DNA of 61,246 nt from an uncultured Mycoplasmatota bacterium. Its GTDB lineage: Bacteria > Bacillota_I > Bacilli_A > RF39 > UBA660. Below are positions 27,370-54,663 of this stretch, in pieces. Under the pieces are notes generated by a model. The model saw only the letters and a program-made list of their open reading frames with translations. It was not told the DNA's origin and searched no databases. The position numbers and the translations under genes are program-made. How positions within the stretch are numbered: the first letter of the stretch is position 1; the number at the start of each line of letters is the position of its first letter. Where the stretch lies: positions 1-61,246 of the forward strand of contig CAMMWS010000003.1 of the NCBI GenBank assembly GCA_946500695.1, written 5' to 3'.

Positions 27370-27951
27370 ATGATAAAAATGGCTAAAAAAGATTTAGGTG
27401 TAAAACCTTATTTATTTCCAATGCCTGTTTTAATGATTGCAACATACTGTGAAGATGGTAGTGTTGATGTTATGAATATGGCTTGGGGAGGTATTTGTGG
27501 TAATAATAAAGTTGCATTAAACATTACAGAGAGTCATAAGACTTCTAAAAATATTAAAGAAAGAGGAGCTTTTACTATTAGTGTTGCAGATGTTCCTCAT
27601 TTAGAAGAGTCAGATTATTTTGGTACTGCTAGTGCTAATAGAGTTAAAGATAAGTTTGAGAAAAGTGGAATGCATGCAGTTAAAAGTGAAAGAGTAGATG
27701 CTCCAATTATTGAAGAGTATCCCATTACCTTAGAATGTAAAGTATCTAAGATATATAATGATGATGAAGGGTTTAGAGTAGTTGGTGAAATAGTTAATGT
27801 CTTAGTAGATGAAGAAGTACTTGATTCTAATGGTAAAGTTGATCCTACTAAGTTAAATGCTTTTGTCTTTGATCAATTTCAAAATGGATATTATGCAATT
27901 GGTGAAAAAGTAGGGGAAGCTTGGAAGAGTGGCAATAAATATATAAAATAG
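27370..27951 (+). CDS. Flavin reductase-like FMN-binding protein
   Basis: PMPVLMIATY, MNMAWGG, APIIEEYPITLEC, VVGEIVNV. Confidence 0.85.
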   Translation: MIKMAKKDLGVKPYLFPMPVLMIATYCEDGSVDVMNMAWGGICGNNKVALNITESHKTSKNIKERGAFTISVADVPHLEESDYFGTASANRVKDKFEKSGMHAVKSERVDAPIIEEYPITLECKVSKIYNDDEGFRVVGEIVNVLVDEEVLDSNGKVDPTKLNAFVFDQFQNGYYAIGEKVGEAWKSGNKYIK

Positions 27952-27990
27952 AGTATTCAGTTTATTTTTATTAAAGGAGTATGATTTGTA

Positions 27991-28473
27991 ATGGAAAGTT
28001 TTAGCTTTTTTATACATAAACCTAAATCTGTTTGTTTAAAAGCGGATTTAATGTTAGATAGTGATACACTAGATGTATCATACTATATTATTGATTGTTT
28101 AACTTATAAAAAGCATATGAAAGATTTTGTAACTTCAATAGATAAAATTAAAAGTTGTAAAAAAAGAATTAAAATTTTTCTAAATATTGCGGATATTATA
28201 TTTTATATAGTAATTGCATTTTTATTTGTATTAGGAGTTTTGTGGCAAAATAATACAGGATTACATATTATTACGCCTATGTTTTGTATTGGCTATTCTA
28301 TTATTATTTTAATTTTTTCTTTTTTACATTTGACTCCTATATTAGAAATATGTCTAGTTGATGGTAATGTTTATTATATTCCAACAAGCAGTTTTATTAT
28401 TTCTACATCAAAACAAAAAAGACAATTAGACACATTGTATCAATTGCTGAATAGAACTAATAGAATTAAGTAA
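27991..28473 (+). CDS. Hypothetical membrane protein
   Basis: SD AAGGAG; two hydrophobic helices. Confidence 0.6.
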   Translation: MESFSFFIHKPKSVCLKADLMLDSDTLDVSYYIIDCLTYKKHMKDFVTSIDKIKSCKKRIKIFLNIADIIFYIVIAFLFVLGVLWQNNTGLHIITPMFCIGYSIIILIFSFLHLTPILEICLVDGNVYYIPTSSFIISTSKQKRQLDTLYQLLNRTNRIK

Positions 28474-28501
28474 ATTATCAAATTCGAATGCTTTGTGATA
28501 C

Positions 28502-28530
28502 TTGAAAATAATATATTTTTATGATACTAT
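28502..28530 (+). promoter_or_regulatory. Promoter of putative antisense RNA 1
   Basis: TTGAAA-17-TACTAT with TG extension; conserved in copy 2. Confidence 0.7.
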
Positions 28531-28536
28531 GAATAT

Positions 28537-28655
28537 GTAAAAGAAATTTACATATAATTAAAAAAGAGGAATACCTAGTTTTGCGTTCTGGGTGTTATCT
28601 CTAAAATGGTTAGAAGTAAACACCCTAATTACAAAGCTGTAATAGGGCGTTTTAC
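28537..28655 (+). ncRNA. Putative antisense antitoxin RNA 1 (type I TA)
   Basis: Promoter, 5' hairpin GTAAA/TTTAC and terminal hairpin AAACACCCTAATTACA/TGTAATAGGGCGTTTT; converges on the peptide ORF stop. Confidence 0.6.
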
Positions 28656-28723
28656 TATCTATAAATAATTAAAAGAATTATAATAAGTAATAGTATTAAT
28701 ATTAAAGAATCTTTCTTACTCAT
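28655..28723 (-). CDS. 22-aa hydrophobic peptide MSKKDSLILILLLIIILLIIYR, putative type I toxin
   Basis: Strong SD AGAAAGGGG 8 nt upstream; single TM helix; ORF length conserved in copy 2. Confidence 0.75.
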   Translation of the reverse strand: MSKKDSLILILLLIIILLIIYR

Positions 28724-28804
28724 AAACATTTCCCCTTTCTACCCCCCTGAAGTCAAGAGATATAGAAAGAGGCAAACACCCATTACTAAGTATTCCTAAC
28801 AGAT

Positions 28805-28833
28805 ATACTACTACATATGATATATATAATCAA
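28805..28833 (-). promoter_or_regulatory. Promoter of putative toxin mRNA 1
   Basis: Minus strand TTGATT-17-TAGTAT; same position as TTGTTT-17-TACTAT in copy 2. Confidence 0.55.
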
Positions 28834-28916
28834 TCGAACAAGATACATTTTTTAATAGAAAATTTGTTTTATATGTTTAAATATGATTAGGAGAATAAAA
28901 AGTTCTTCTTTTTTGG

Positions 28917-28945
28917 TTGTCTAGGTATTTCTCCTATGCTATAAT
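28917..28945 (+). promoter_or_regulatory. Promoter for the downstream gene, carried within the duplicated module
   Basis: TTGTCT-17-TATAAT with TG extension; also present in copy 2. Confidence 0.7.
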
Positions 28946-28965
28946 TTTGCTTGGAAGGTGATAGT

Positions 28966-29445
28966 ATGCATTTTTATAGTTTGGATCATGAAGCTTCTTT
29001 TGAGGATTTAAGAAAATTTAATTATCCTAATCAAAAGATCGGTGTAATTGCCCATATCGAAAACAAAGATGGAGAAATTTTACTACAACAAAGAGGAGTA
29101 AAATCGCGTGATGAAAATGGCCTTTATGAAGATATAGGTGGTAAAGAAGAATCAGGAGATGTGAACTTTTTATCAGCGATTAAGCGTGAAATTAAAGAAG
29201 AAACAGGTGATGAAATTAATTTAGCCTTTAGTGATTCTATAGGAATTTATCATTGCTATAAAAATGACATTAACTGGATTTTTATAATCTATTTTGTTAA
29301 ATATATTGAGGGGAATTTTAAAATAATGGAAAAGGATAAGTGTACTGATTTTCACTTTTTTAAATATGATGAGGCAATTAATTCAGAATTAGTTACGGAA
29401 AGTTGTAAATATTTAATTAAAAGCATAAAATGTAATTATAGATAG
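28966..29445 (+). CDS. NUDIX hydrolase
   Basis: GGKEESGDVNFLSAIKREIKEETG. Confidence 0.85.
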   Translation: MHFYSLDHEASFEDLRKFNYPNQKIGVIAHIENKDGEILLQQRGVKSRDENGLYEDIGGKEESGDVNFLSAIKREIKEETGDEINLAFSDSIGIYHCYKNDINWIFIIYFVKYIEGNFKIMEKDKCTDFHFFKYDEAINSELVTESCKYLIKSIKCNYR

Positions 29446-29489
29446 CAATTTAATTAATGATTGTGAAAAATGTTTTATTAACATAGCAC

Positions 29490-29518
29490 TTGAAAATAAT
29501 ATATATTTATGATACTAT
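29490..29518 (+). promoter_or_regulatory. Promoter of putative antisense RNA 2
   Basis: TTGAAA-17-TACTAT with TG extension. Confidence 0.7.
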
Positions 29519-29524
29519 GAATAT

Positions 29525-29643
29525 GTAAAAGAAATTTACATAAACTAAAAAAGAGGAAATACCTAGTTTTGTAGATGGGTATTTACCTCAAAAAAATCTT
29601 GTGTAAACACCCTAGTTACAATGATGTAATAGGGTGTCTTTTT
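29525..29643 (+). ncRNA. Putative antisense antitoxin RNA 2 (type I TA)
   Basis: Terminal hairpin ACACCCTAGTTACA/TGTAATAGGGTGT plus T tract; converges on the peptide ORF. Confidence 0.6.
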
Positions 29644-29710
29644 ATCTATAAATAATTAAAAGAATTATAATAAGTAATAATATTACTATTAAAGTATCTT
29701 TCTTACTCAT
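29642..29710 (-). CDS. 22-aa hydrophobic peptide MSKKDTLIVILLLIIILLIIYR, putative type I toxin
   Basis: SD AGAAAGGGG; differs from copy 1 only by S>T, L>V, one silent change and TAG>TAA. Confidence 0.75.
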   Translation of the reverse strand: MSKKDTLIVILLLIIILLIIYR

Positions 29711-29788
29711 AAACATTTCCCCTTTCTAACCCCCTAAAATTAAGAGATAGAAAGAGGCAAACACCCATACTAGGTAATTCCTAAGTTA

Positions 29789-29817
29789 ATAGTATCATAC
29801 TTTTATTTATAAAACAA
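29789..29817 (-). promoter_or_regulatory. Promoter of putative toxin mRNA 2
   Basis: Minus strand TTGTTT-17-TACTAT with TG extension. Confidence 0.6.
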
Positions 29818-29950
29818 TCGAACAAGATACATTTTTTAATAGAAAATTTGTTTTATATATTTAAATATGATTAGGAGAATAAAAAGTTCTTCTTTTTTTG
29901 TTGTCTAGGTATTTCTCCTATGCTATAATTTTGCTTGGAAGAGGTGGATT

Positions 29951-30706
29951 ATGTTAGAAGTTAAAGACTTAAAGAAGAAGTTTGTTAAGTATAATGCTAA
30001 ACGTAAAAAAGAAGAGTTTTATGCTGATAATGGTATTAGTTTTAAAGCTAAAGATGGAGAAATCATCGGAATATTAGGACCAAATGGGGCAGGAAAGACA
30101 ACATTACTTAGAATGATTGCAGGAATTCTTGAACCTACTAGTGGAACTATTTCTTTTGGAAAATTAGACTATCTTCATAACGAGATAGAAATAAAGAAAA
30201 ATATTGCCTATTTATCAGGTAATACTAAACTATATAATACTTTATCTTGTTATGAGTTATTAAAAATGTGTGGAAATATTTATGGAGTAGAGGAAAGTAA
30301 ATTAGAGGAGAGAATAAAAGAAATATCTAAGAAGTTAAATATGGATAGTTTCATGTATAATAGAATTGAAAACTTATCAACAGGACAAACTCAAAGAGTT
30401 AATATTGCAAGATGTTTAGTTCATGATCCTAAATACTATATTTTAGATGAAGCGACTAGTGGGCTTGATATTATTTCTAGTCAAATTATTTTAGACTTTA
30501 TTAAAGAAGAAAAGAAACGTGGTAAGATAATTTTATATTCTACCCATTATATGGAAGAAGCTGAAAATATTTGTGATAATGTTATTATGATTAATAAAGG
30601 TATTGTAATTAAAGAAGGTACTCCTAGTGAAATAAAAAAATCTACTAAAACTACTAATTTAAGAGATGCTTTCTTTACTTTAATAGGAGGTGTTTCTAAT
30701 GAGTAA
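29951..30706 (+). CDS. ABC transporter ATP-binding protein (NatA-like)
   Basis: GPNGAGKT, LSTGQ, LDEATSGLD, STHYMEE. Confidence 0.88.
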   Translation: MLEVKDLKKKFVKYNAKRKKEEFYADNGISFKAKDGEIIGILGPNGAGKTTLLRMIAGILEPTSGTISFGKLDYLHNEIEIKKNIAYLSGNTKLYNTLSCYELLKMCGNIYGVEESKLEERIKEISKKLNMDSFMYNRIENLSTGQTQRVNIARCLVHDPKYYILDEATSGLDIISSQIILDFIKEEKKRGKIILYSTHYMEEAENICDNVIMINKGIVIKEGTPSEIKKSTKTTNLRDAFFTLIGGVSNE

Positions 30707-31838
30707 TTTAGGTAATATTTTAAAGAAAGAATTAAGAGAGATGTTTCGTGATAAGAAATCTCTTATGATGATGTTAATTATTCCTATTTTAATACCTGCA
30801 TTAATAATAGGTATGTCTGCTTTATTTGAAGCACAAACTAATAAGCCTATAACTGATTATAATAAAATAGGTTTTGATTATGAATTAAGTGAGATGGAAA
30901 AAGATATTGCAGATAACTTAGATATAGAAGTTATTAGTGGAAGTAATGAAGAGTTAGAAAATAAGTATAGTAATGGAGAAATAGATTTATATATCACAAA
31001 AGATGGTAGTACTTATACTATAAATGGTGAAGATAATGAGACTACTAGTTATGCTACAAGTTTAATGGATACTTACTTTGCTACTTATAAAGAAGCATTA
31101 CAAACAAATTATTTAGCTAGTAATAATATAAATCCTAGTGATGTTACTTCTATTATTACTGTTAATAAAGATATAAAAGAAACAGAGAACTTTTATGGTA
31201 ATTATATTGTAAATTATGGTTTTCTCTTTATAATTATGGCTATTACTATATCTGCTACTTATCCTGCTACTGATACAACAGCAGGGGAAAAAGAAAGAGG
31301 AACACTTGAAACATTACTTACTTTTCCAATTAAAAGTAGAGATATAATTATTGGTAAGTTCTTAAGTGTCTCTTTATCATCAATTATTACAGGTATTGTT
31401 AGTTTAATATTAATGTTAATCTCACTAGCGTATGCTAATGGTGCATTTGAAATATATAAAGATACTAATTTAATGCTATCTACTAGTAGTTTAATCTTTT
31501 CAATATTAGTAATTATCGCTTATTCGCTACTAGTTAGTGGATTATGTATTGCTATTGCAAGTAAATCTAAAACCTTTAAAGAAGCTCAAAGTGCTTTAAC
31601 ACCATTAACATTTATATGTTTCTTTCCAGGTATGATAGCTTTCATGGCTGGGGTTAGTTCATCACCGCTACTTTCATTAGTACCTTTCTTAAACTTTACA
31701 CTGTTATTTCAAGATATAGTTGTAGGAAATATAGATATTGTTAATATCTTATTAATGAGTATATCAACAATTGTCATTATTACATTAGTTTTAGTAGTAA
31801 TAATTAAACAATATAAGAGTGAAAAAGTATTATTTTAG
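30699..31838 (+). CDS. ABC-2 type permease (NatB-like)
   Basis: KELREMFRDKKS, AGEKERGTLETLLTFP, SKTFKEAQS; multiple TM helices. Confidence 0.85.
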   Translation: MSNLGNILKKELREMFRDKKSLMMMLIIPILIPALIIGMSALFEAQTNKPITDYNKIGFDYELSEMEKDIADNLDIEVISGSNEELENKYSNGEIDLYITKDGSTYTINGEDNETTSYATSLMDTYFATYKEALQTNYLASNNINPSDVTSIITVNKDIKETENFYGNYIVNYGFLFIIMAITISATYPATDTTAGEKERGTLETLLTFPIKSRDIIIGKFLSVSLSSIITGIVSLILMLISLAYANGAFEIYKDTNLMLSTSSLIFSILVIIAYSLLVSGLCIAIASKSKTFKEAQSALTPLTFICFFPGMIAFMAGVSSSPLLSLVPFLNFTLLFQDIVVGNIDIVNILLMSISTIVIITLVLVVIIKQYKSEKVLF

Positions 31839-44054: not shown

Positions 44055-44085
44055 AATCTCTAATAATAGCTTATAATACACTTAA

Positions 44086-44331
44086 ATGCGATTGATATTC
44101 AAGGAGTACATGTAAAGTATTTATAGAGAGTTAATGGCTGGTGGAAATTAACAATATGATATATGGAAGGTAGTGAATAGAGCAGGGTTTCTGAAATAGT
44201 AGTAAGTTACCACGGGATGTCCGTTATAAGTAATGAGTTAGTTTAATAACTATAAATTAAGGTGGTACAGCGTAGACTCCTTGTTTGACGCCCTTAAGTT
44301 ATAGTTATTTTTTATTTTAAGGAGGAGTCTA
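44086..44331 (+). promoter_or_regulatory. T-box riboswitch, Val specifier (GUA)
   Basis: AGAGAG (44125), GGCTGGTGGAA (44136), GAAG-GTA-G specifier (44170-44172), AGTA box, CCGTTA, T-box AAGG-TGGTACA-GCGT...ACGC-CCTT; upstream of valS. Confidence 0.9.
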
Positions 44332-44771
44332 TGAAAAGAGGAAAAGTCGTCATTATTCCGGATGAAGAACAAATATTAGAAGATAAGTTTGAACAGGATA
44401 TTTTAGATGATGAATATCATGTTAAAGGTTATCAGAAATTTTCTGACGATAATAATTTAGGTCTGAATTTTAGAGATGATGAATCACATAGAGCAGGTCT
44501 TAGTATTGCAGAGTTAGGACATTTTAATTATAAGACTGAAGATGATATAGGTGTCATAGCTTTTTATCTTCCAAGTAAAGTTACAGATAGACAGTTAGAA
44601 TATTTTGAAAATCATAAAGATGATTATGCTAGTTATGGGACAGTAGGCGCATATATTTTTAGAAGAGTAGATGATACTATTTATACTGATGAAATATATG
44701 GACTTGATGTGATAGAAAATCAAATGATTAAAAGAAATAGGAAAAGTGAGGAGATAGGTCATGTTAGATAA
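44331..44771 (+). CDS. Hypothetical acidic protein between the T-box and valS
   Basis: Strong SD AAGGAGG; its 3' end overlaps the valS start. Confidence 0.75.
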
Positions 44772-54586: not shown

Positions 54587-54663
54587 GGCGGCGTTGGTGA
54601 AGTGGTTAACACGCTGGTTTGTGGCACCAGTATGCATGAGTTCGATCCTCATACGCCGCCCCA
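54587..54663 (+). tRNA. trnH: tRNA-His (GUG) with encoded G-1 and CCA
   Basis: Acceptor GCGGCGT/ACGCCGC, anticodon arm CTGGT-TTGTGGC-ACCAG, T-loop GTTCGATC, C73 plus CCA. Confidence 0.96.

Follow-up and report, generated by a model that had tools for sequence, protein, structure and literature searches.

Two copies of a type I toxin-antitoxin-like module, with a predicted 22-residue toxin peptide and a convergent antisense RNA, in a genome of uncultured gut Bacilli

The window analysed here is a stretch of 61,246 nucleotides (nt) with a GC content of ~25%, taken from the genome of an uncultured Mycoplasmatota bacterium (contig CAMMWS010000003.1). In the interval between a flavin reductase gene and an ATP-binding cassette (ABC) transporter gene it contains two direct repeats of ~455 nt (28500-28957 and 29488-29941), which are 90% identical when the copies are aligned and which are separated by a NUDIX gene (28966-29445). 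Each repeat includes a core module of 348 nt (copy A) or 344 nt (copy B), in which a 22-codon open reading frame (ORF) on the minus strand converges with a putative small RNA gene on the plus strand. An initial annotation, made from the letters alone, had placed two copies of an unannotated type I toxin-antitoxin-like module here, and both copies are indeed found at that place. A 32-nt probe across the Shine-Dalgarno (SD) sequence and the start of the ORF has two matches in the 61 kb, no more and no fewer, against 0 expected from shuffles, and a profile of the core retrieves 28500-28847 (E 4e-101) and 29488-29831 (E 2e-94), with no third match in the 61-kb window. A covariance model of the antisense RNA likewise retrieves only copies A and B from the 61 kb. 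The identity between the copies differs by part and amounts to 97% for the antisense promoter, 74% for the antisense RNA, 94% for the ORF, 85% for the toxin leader, 58% for the toxin promoter and 98% for the block downstream.

The ORF is located on the minus strand at 28655-28723 in copy A (MSKKDSLILILLLIIILLIIYR followed by TAG) and at 29642-29710 in copy B (MSKKDTLIVILLLIIILLIIYR followed by TAA). Counted from the second ATG, it has 22 codons in both copies and encodes MSKKD[S/T]LI[L/V]ILLLIIILLIIYR, a peptide with a charged head (MSKKD), a 15-residue core of Leu, Ile and Val, and an aromatic-plus-basic tail (YR). The second ATG, situated 8 nt from the SD, is considered the real start because the first one is only 2 nt from the SD and is missing in relatives such as the loci L015b, L023, L031, L039 and L040. 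Differences at 4 nt separate the ORFs of the copies and give S6T, L9V, a silent change in a Leu codon and TAG/TAA; they are conservative or silent, as had been remarked at the outset. All of the 17 genome loci recovered with a degenerate DNA pattern search keep the ORF. Among 14 distinct 22-codon sequences, the variable sites are distributed as 12/6/18 over the three codon positions, and 13 of the 22 residues are invariant, most of them despite synonymous changes. The in-frame ratio of nonsynonymous to synonymous differences (pN/pS, Nei-Gojobori) is 0.18, with synonymous sites saturated (pS 0.60), whereas four of the other frames range from 0.79 to 1.73 and the wobble-aligned antisense frame has 0.32. 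The sole length variant is an in-frame deletion of 18 nt, and the SD and the start codon are invariant. The codon-position pattern, the pN/pS value and the in-frame indel together argue that the peptide is translated and constrained; judged by this comparison, the small ORF is under purifying selection at the protein level and really coding.

The same data bear on the view that the repeats constitute a non-coding intergenic cassette, either a bidirectional terminator combined with a promoter element or a repeat resembling a miniature inverted-repeat transposable element, in which the ORF would be fortuitous. The modules do lie between convergent or co-directional genes, their hairpins can terminate on both strands, and at this locus they are joined to a block with a promoter for the gene downstream. 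A pN/pS that is this low only in the frame of the ORF, at saturated synonymous sites, is at odds with such a cassette, and so are the invariance of SD and start codon and the in-frame nature of the only indel. Moreover, other subfamilies of the module differ in sequence and yet have, at the equivalent position, a small hydrophobic ORF preceded by an SD, and the repeats showed neither terminal inverted repeats nor target-site duplications. We therefore regard a non-coding cassette as exceedingly improbable.

On the plus strand, the promoter scan identified in both copies the extended promoter that had been suggested, consisting of TTGAAA, a spacer of 17 nt and the TG-extended -10 element TGATACTAT (28502-28530 in copy A and 29490-29518 in copy B). 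This promoter is almost invariant across family members, including those with other peptide subfamilies. The antisense RNA that it would produce has a predicted length of ~118 nt, close to the ~120 nt estimated before, and covers 28536-28653 in copy A (fold z = -4.0; covariance-model score 135 bits; predicted ends) and 29524-29641 in copy B (fold z = -5.6; 124.9 bits). In copy A it comprises a 5' hairpin (28535-28553), a central hairpin (28565-28602) and a terminator hairpin (28621-28649) followed by UUUU (28650-28653). The U-run of the terminator ends at 28653 and the stop codon occupies 28655-28657, so that the RNA ends 2 nt short of the peptide stop, and the same is seen in copy B; the hairpin thus lies where the initial annotation had it. 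A terminator scan with a loop limit of 8 nt reported nothing in the modules, the loops of which exceed this limit. The differences between the antisense RNAs of copies A and B are mostly found at unpaired positions (23 of 58, versus 10 of 64 paired positions), which agrees with the earlier remark that the loops diverge. Recognition specific to each pair is plausible in view of these diverged loops; perfect stretches of 10-13 nt are still common to both toxin/antisense pairs.

The structure of the antisense RNA is retained widely. Applied to 19 distinct antisense sequences, the three-hairpin model gives 91% pairing, versus 31-48% when the partners are slid. The covariance model, built from 19 sequences, has 56 matches, 46 of them distinct, in the window, the genome loci and the metagenome loci. 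In the alignment of these 46 sequences, 93% of the cells are paired and double changes occur in 21 of the 32 pairs, including all 11 pairs of the terminator; none of 500 shuffles reaches the observed values for pairing and double changes. Over both alignments the controls with slid partners span 26-48%. Two small ORFs on the plus strand (28606-28668 and 29575-29655) were considered as coding and rejected, their start and sequence being different between the copies.

It could be argued that the plus-strand RNA has its targets elsewhere, being mainly a small RNA that acts in trans or the 3' untranslated region (UTR) of the upstream gene, and that its overlap with the peptide mRNA is incidental. 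The upstream genes end ~10-25 nt before the module without a terminator of their own, read-through would stop at the same hairpin, and the RNA has conserved single-stranded stretches. Nevertheless, the RNA possesses its own promoter, which is the best conserved promoter of the module, and it always travels with a convergent small ORF. In addition, the 5' end of the toxin mRNA covaries with the central hairpin of the RNA, which ties both transcripts together. An independent role of this kind is in our opinion very improbable.

The minus-strand promoter of the initial annotation is present in both copies as well; it falls below the threshold of the promoter scan and was read directly from the sequence and its conservation. 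In copy A (28805-28833) it is composed of TTGATT (28828-28833), 17 nt and TAGTAT (28805-28810), and in copy B (29789-29817) of TTGTTT (29812-29817), 17 nt and TGATACTAT (29789-29797). The corresponding toxin mRNA would in its long form measure ~238 nt in copy A (28560-28797, minus strand; U6 tail 28560-28565) and extend over 29547-29781 in copy B (minus strand; U6 tail 29547-29552), where the SD hairpin and the 5'-3' pairing are predicted too. At this presumed full length both mRNAs fold far better than shuffles (z = -7.7 for A and -9.2 for B). The structured leader with SD that had been described is likewise predicted in both copies: an anti-SD in the leader pairs with the SD AGAAAGGGG, in copy A within a hairpin at 28732-28772 in which the anti-SD CCUCUUUCUA (28763-28772) faces the SD UAGAAAGGGG (28732-28741).

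Folding of the alignment retains two helices, namely this SD hairpin and a 13-bp pairing between the extreme 5' end and the 3' end of the mRNA. The latter, a conserved 5'-3' lock according to the structure models, is the main feature beyond the initial annotation. More specifically, the first ~30 nt of the toxin mRNA are complementary to a segment ~200 nt downstream, which is followed by a U-run. In copy A the 5' end AGGAAUACUUAG..GGGUGUUU (28775-28797) pairs with the 3' end AACACCC..CUAGGUAUUCCU (28567-28595) in a duplex of -30.8 kcal/mol (z = -6.6), and a sequence identical to copy B in locus L006 gives -40.1 kcal/mol. In 20 of 21 variants the extended duplex amounts to -28 to -41 kcal/mol (z -5.7 to -9.8); L014 (296-636) contains a copy in which the helix is broken (-16.8 kcal/mol). 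In subfamily 2 the inner helix is wholly rewritten with the pairing kept (GGGUGUUUGCCUC/GAGGUAACACCC becoming UAGGUACUAUCCC/GGGAUAGUACCUA), and in a comparison of 38 modules the divergent subfamilies had cognate 5'-3' duplexes of -22 to -46 kcal/mol versus non-cognate medians of -14 to -27 kcal/mol. According to partition-function folding, both SD and AUG of most members would be paired, whether or not the 3' region is blocked; in copy B, blocking of the 3' region drops the predicted accessibility of the SD from 0.54 to 0.23. After the stop codon, the minus strand of copy A shows a strong hairpin that is the complement of the plus-strand terminator, then a weaker one that is the complement of the central antisense hairpin, and then the U6 (28565-28560).

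Some variation of the toxin transcript is peculiar to copy A. The TG extension that relatives have in the toxin -10 element (28805-28813) is lost by a change of TGG to TAG, and the partner in the 3' arm (28598-28601) reads GAGA for GAGG, with a weaker 5'-3' helix (-30.8 vs ~-37 kcal/mol). On the basis of these changes copy A may be slightly attenuated. The right edge of the core is formed by a conserved 17-mer, TGTATCTTGTTCGATTG (minus strand; 28831-28847 in copy A and 29815-29831 in copy B), which lies at the toxin -35 element and upstream of it. It is the most conserved element of the module, is kept where ORF and hairpins have been rewritten, and occurs only together with modules. The 17-mer may be an operator or activator site; by eye it fits neither the LexA nor the cre consensus.

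The arrangement suggests how the module might work. A weak promoter on the minus strand would give a short mRNA for the 22-residue peptide, with the SD and the AUG buried in local hairpins, and a stronger and highly conserved promoter on the plus strand would give the convergent three-hairpin RNA. The full-length toxin mRNA, being closed by the 5'-3' pairing, would be translationally inert. The antisense RNA would be perfectly complementary to ~95 nt of the toxin 3' UTR, or, if the toxin mRNA ended at the shared hairpin instead, to at least ~35-40 nt. As the antisense RNA holds a same-sense copy of the toxin 5' end, it would compete with this 5' end for the toxin 3' end. Its pairing would then displace the toxin 5' end, and the long duplex would form a substrate for RNase III, leading to decay of the mRNA by analogy with RatA, SR5 and SR6, for which antisense pairing results in RNase III-dependent decay of the toxin mRNA (PMC6562991). 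Binding of the antisense RNA is predicted to change the access to the SD little, except in copy B, where access would be lowered as with SR4. Because the SD is predicted to be paired with or without a blocked 3' region, degradation is the likelier main effect. When the supply of antisense RNA falls or the mRNA is processed, the peptide would be made and inserted into the membrane, and growth arrest or death would follow.

The layout and the regulatory features match those given for known families (PMC8594479, PMC6562991, PMC2887945). The convergent 3'-overlap geometry makes the comparison with txpA/RatA and bsrG/SR4, drawn in the initial annotation, an apt one. Like these systems, and like bsrE/SR5 and yonT/SR6, all from Bacillus subtilis, the module has convergent genes and an antisense RNA with its own promoter and terminator (PMC6562991, PMC8594479). 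It also has in common with them a predicted pairing of ~100 nt with the 3' region of the toxin mRNA, a small hydrophobic toxin candidate and a partly sequestered SD, and RNase III-dependent decay would by analogy be the expected outcome. Two refinements are to be made, in that the antisense RNA stops short of the ORF and that the toxin mRNA has a conserved 5'-3' long-distance pairing. The antisense RNAs of the B. subtilis families cover the end of the ORF (T1TAdb), whereas those of both copies stop before the stop codon. Moreover, unlike the B. subtilis systems, the modules have a shorter peptide (22 residues) and a 5'-3' closing helix, and they lie outside prophage regions, without a match in the phage and viral-contig collections that were searched. 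No homology of peptide or RNA to TxpA/RatA, BsrG/SR4, BsrE/SR5 or YonT/SR6 was found (Pfam and NCBIfam at E up to 10; noise in Rfam).

In the Gram-positive families the antisense RNA is located on the 3' side, and it reaches into the ORF in all of them except Fst/RNAII and SprA1/SprA1as (T1TAdb, PMC8594479). The module resembles Fst/RNAII (par of pAD1) and SprA1/SprA1as in both respects (PMC8594479), as well as in having a post-stop hairpin that can terminate on both strands and two RNAs that start with a 5' stem-loop (PMC8594479, PMC2887945); these systems are also Gram-positive and tandem-prone. In Fst and SprA1 the functional pairing involves the toxin 5' region and the translation start, beyond the stretch in which the two genes overlap (PMC8594479), whereas the antisense RNA of the module is similar to the toxin 5' end in same-sense orientation and is not complementary to it. 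In a search of 18 members, short of the three most divergent ones, pairing between antisense RNA and toxin start in the manner of Fst had no consistent site (z +0.1 to -4.0); the predicted duplexes were messy and weak, with no shared interaction site, and start pairing of this type was rejected as unsupported. A recurrent contact AAACACCC:GGGUGUUU may exist, which in the models is inseparable from alternative intramolecular pairings. Neither Pfam nor NCBIfam returned a match to an Fst/Ldr-type peptide signature, and PDB returned no relative.

The peptide calls to mind yet another family, the Ibs toxins, which are 18-19 residues long. Like the Ibs/Sib systems, the module encodes a very short and extremely Leu/Ile/Val-rich toxin candidate with an aromatic residue near the C-terminus, and occurs in multiple copies and in tandem. 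In the proteobacterial Ibs/Sib systems Sib spans the whole ibs ORF (PMC8594479), whereas the antisense RNA of the module stays out of the ORF, and with no Pfam match at E up to 10 for Ibs peptide homology, the resemblance is compositional only. The 5'-3' lock has its counterpart elsewhere. SD sequestration and 5'-3' interaction are key determinants of toxin mRNA locking, and both act on the full-length toxin mRNA of hok/Sok and aapA1/IsoA1 as is predicted for the module (PMC8594479). These are Gram-negative systems with the antisense RNA at the 5' side inside the mRNA, whereas the module is convergent with a 3' overlap; the peptide is unrelated to those of hok and aapA1 (no Pfam match), and only the 5'-3' locking principle is common. 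Activation by 3' processing is documented for hok and aapA1 and would be a guess for these modules. Thus, as far as sequence comparison goes, the family is new and the kind is known, with a convergent 3'-overlap layout like that of txpA/RatA and bsrG/SR4 and an mRNA locking like that of hok and AapA1.

Gut metagenomes contain the cassette, and so do at least 15 species-level metagenome-assembled genomes (MAGs) of uncultured Bacilli with a low GC content. The MAGs of the 17 genome loci are labelled uncultured Bacilli or Tenericutes, in addition to Candidatus Onthousia. The locus L016 (CAZJKS010000031.1) is filed under an uncultured Muribaculaceae MAG; it has the same low-GC Bacilli synteny and module and is probably mis-binned. 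A scan of metagenomes with the antisense promoter alone brought to light more modules of the same plan, with other small hydrophobic ORFs at the same position. At least three further peptide subfamilies of 26-33 residues stand behind this promoter: MRKIEKFLC...IKIVPTP (30-33 residues), MKTKTFIIKVLKLIPLILLSLSFLVLTFKIK and relatives (30-31 residues), and MNKKDFLVFSLVMIIFLLLFLLFIVLI and relatives (26-30 residues). In every one of them the SD is complementary to a nearby anti-SD, and the 5'-3' complementarity is kept in different sequences. The metagenome matches L030, L032, L037, L048 and L054 to the promoter pattern were dropped as chance promoters of unrelated genes.

The genomic behaviour of the module is that of a variable element. 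Relatives that share >90% protein identity have the interval from the flavin reductase gene to the ABC transporter gene in at least four states, which contain one module; a module and NUDIX; a module, NUDIX and a subfamily-1 module, as in the window; or a module, NUDIX and a subfamily-2 module. The loci compared with positions 27370-31838 of the window at this rearrangement hotspot were L007, L008, L012, L013, L015, L018 and L019. Other copies are found in unrelated genomic contexts or as tandem pairs. In L028 (637-974) the start codon is lost (ATGAGA to TCTCGA) and the antisense half is kept. In L044 (1-1290) and L022 (6923-7117) the toxin half has been replaced by an element of the insertion sequence (IS) IS605 type with TnpB, and again the antisense half is kept; the TnpB gene (Pfam OrfB_IS605, Cas12f1-like TNB) abuts the antisense terminator, the junction falling within the last codons of the toxin ORF. 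The 18-nt in-frame deletion, present in L009 (5733-6060) and L019 (2315-2642), results in an allele of 16 residues. The decayed ORFs beside retained antisense halves are indirect hints at toxicity only. As a whole, the genomic pattern fits an accessory, self-contained and potentially harmful module, and not a housekeeping small protein or a plain intergenic repeat.

This pattern has to be considered together with the possibility that the peptide is a non-toxic small membrane protein, for instance a subunit or modulator of a membrane complex, the dose of which is tuned by a cis-antisense RNA. Purifying selection on the peptide would suit such a protein, copies are often found beside an ABC transporter operon, and the toxicity of the peptide is a prediction. 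The unrelated contexts, the tandem pairs and a presence that varies between close relatives are less easily reconciled with it. The same applies to the swapping of unrelated-looking peptide subfamilies at the same position and to the retention of the antisense half where the start codon has been lost or an IS element abuts. In addition, it is typically toxic products whose translation is repressed so heavily and at several levels. We consider a non-toxic membrane protein unlikely.

With a probability of roughly 77%, we favour the reading that each copy is a chromosomal type I toxin-antitoxin-like module, formed by a predicted toxin peptide and an antisense RNA. The geometry, the coding constraint, and the predicted structures and their covariation are established by sequence and comparison, and all predictions of this reading that could be put to the test at the level of sequence were borne out. 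The traits of the type I class are recognizable in an ORF of <60 codons for a hydrophobic peptide of membrane type (22 residues, under the constraint described, in at least 15 species-level MAGs). They are equally apparent in a cis antisense RNA with its own predicted promoter and, by geometry, an overlap of ~40-95 nt with the toxin mRNA, and in a toxin mRNA built to block translation, with the SD hairpin and 5'-3' helix predicted and kept across subfamilies. Several points count against this reading. Both transcripts and all their ends are deduced from the DNA. The 3' end of the toxin mRNA is ambiguous, as on the minus strand the hairpin that precedes the U6 has little stability (-4 kcal/mol in A and -11.4 kcal/mol in B), and the shared post-stop hairpin is strong (-20 kcal/mol) but has a poor U-tract. 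The SD is predicted to be closed with or without the antisense RNA, which leaves the expression of the toxin unexplained. The alignment used for the covariation was fitted to the structure model, which biases it towards structure. Finally, at 22 residues the peptide comes close to the lower limit of length among known type I toxins, and its hydrophobic core has only ~15 residues.

The suggestion that the peptide family may be new has held in all searches. In the module region Rfam gave only noise at gathering and permissive thresholds, the best match being sok (E 0.44; 17 bits versus a cut-off of 59 bits). The peptides have no match at E up to 10 in Pfam and NCBIfam and no meaningful match in PHROGs, PADLOC and PDB, and an exact look-up of 10 peptides in a collection of 15 billion proteins found none of them. 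A distant DNA search of plasmids returned a single match of 68 nt, AT-rich and due to chance, which lies between unrelated genes in a C. difficile record, and the paper library that was searched had none linking this lineage to toxin-antitoxin systems. The modules look like a previously unrecorded type I family in uncultured gut Bacilli. A wider proposal, which we put forward tentatively and hold to be rather doubtful, is that they belong to a large unrecorded type I superfamily in uncultured gut Bacilli with reduced genomes. Such a superfamily would combine a conserved antitoxin promoter and a 'mirror' RNA design with interchangeable toxin cassettes of at least four peptide subfamilies, and diverged loops would prevent cross-talk between co-resident copies. 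In the 'mirror' design the toxin 5' end would be a same-sense copy of the antitoxin hairpin, and the antitoxin and the toxin 5' end would compete for the toxin 3' end.

Type I genes are too short for gene callers, which makes such systems hard to find. If the peptide is toxic, the modules would amount to a new family, divided into several subfamilies, in a lineage for which metagenomes are the only source, and would include one of the shortest toxins. They would not be surprising in kind, since Bacillus, Enterococcus, Staphylococcus, E. coli and Helicobacter already provide established examples of the layout and the principles. If the switch by competition for the 3' end is true, type I systems would gain a new variant of regulation. 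The antisense RNAs, of which at least 46 are distinct, form together with their swapped toxins a clean natural data set for studying the locking of toxin mRNAs and the cross-talk of co-resident copies. The data set could also be used for local rearrangements driven by the modules, of which the NUDIX cassette flanked by two copies is an example.

With respect to this cassette, the part of each repeat outside the core is a right block of 110 nt that is restricted to this locus and is missing from modules in other genomic contexts. In copy A (28848-28957, plus strand) it holds a hairpin with U6 (28889-28914) and a promoter TTGTCT-17-TGCTATAAT (28917-28945) that would feed the NUDIX gene, and in copy B (29832-29941, plus strand) a terminator-like hairpin and a promoter (29901-29929) that would feed the ABC transporter gene. 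As the block brackets the gene at both copies, the NUDIX gene looks like a cassette flanked by repeats. On the other side of copy A, a membrane-like ORF of 160 residues without a Pfam match (27991-28473, plus strand) lies between the flavin reductase gene and the module; in the related genomes examined the module directly follows the flavin reductase gene, without this ORF. The only Rfam matches in the whole window are a T-box leader (44082-44298; 103.7 bits), situated upstream of an ORF at 44331-44771, and a tRNA gene (54588-54660).

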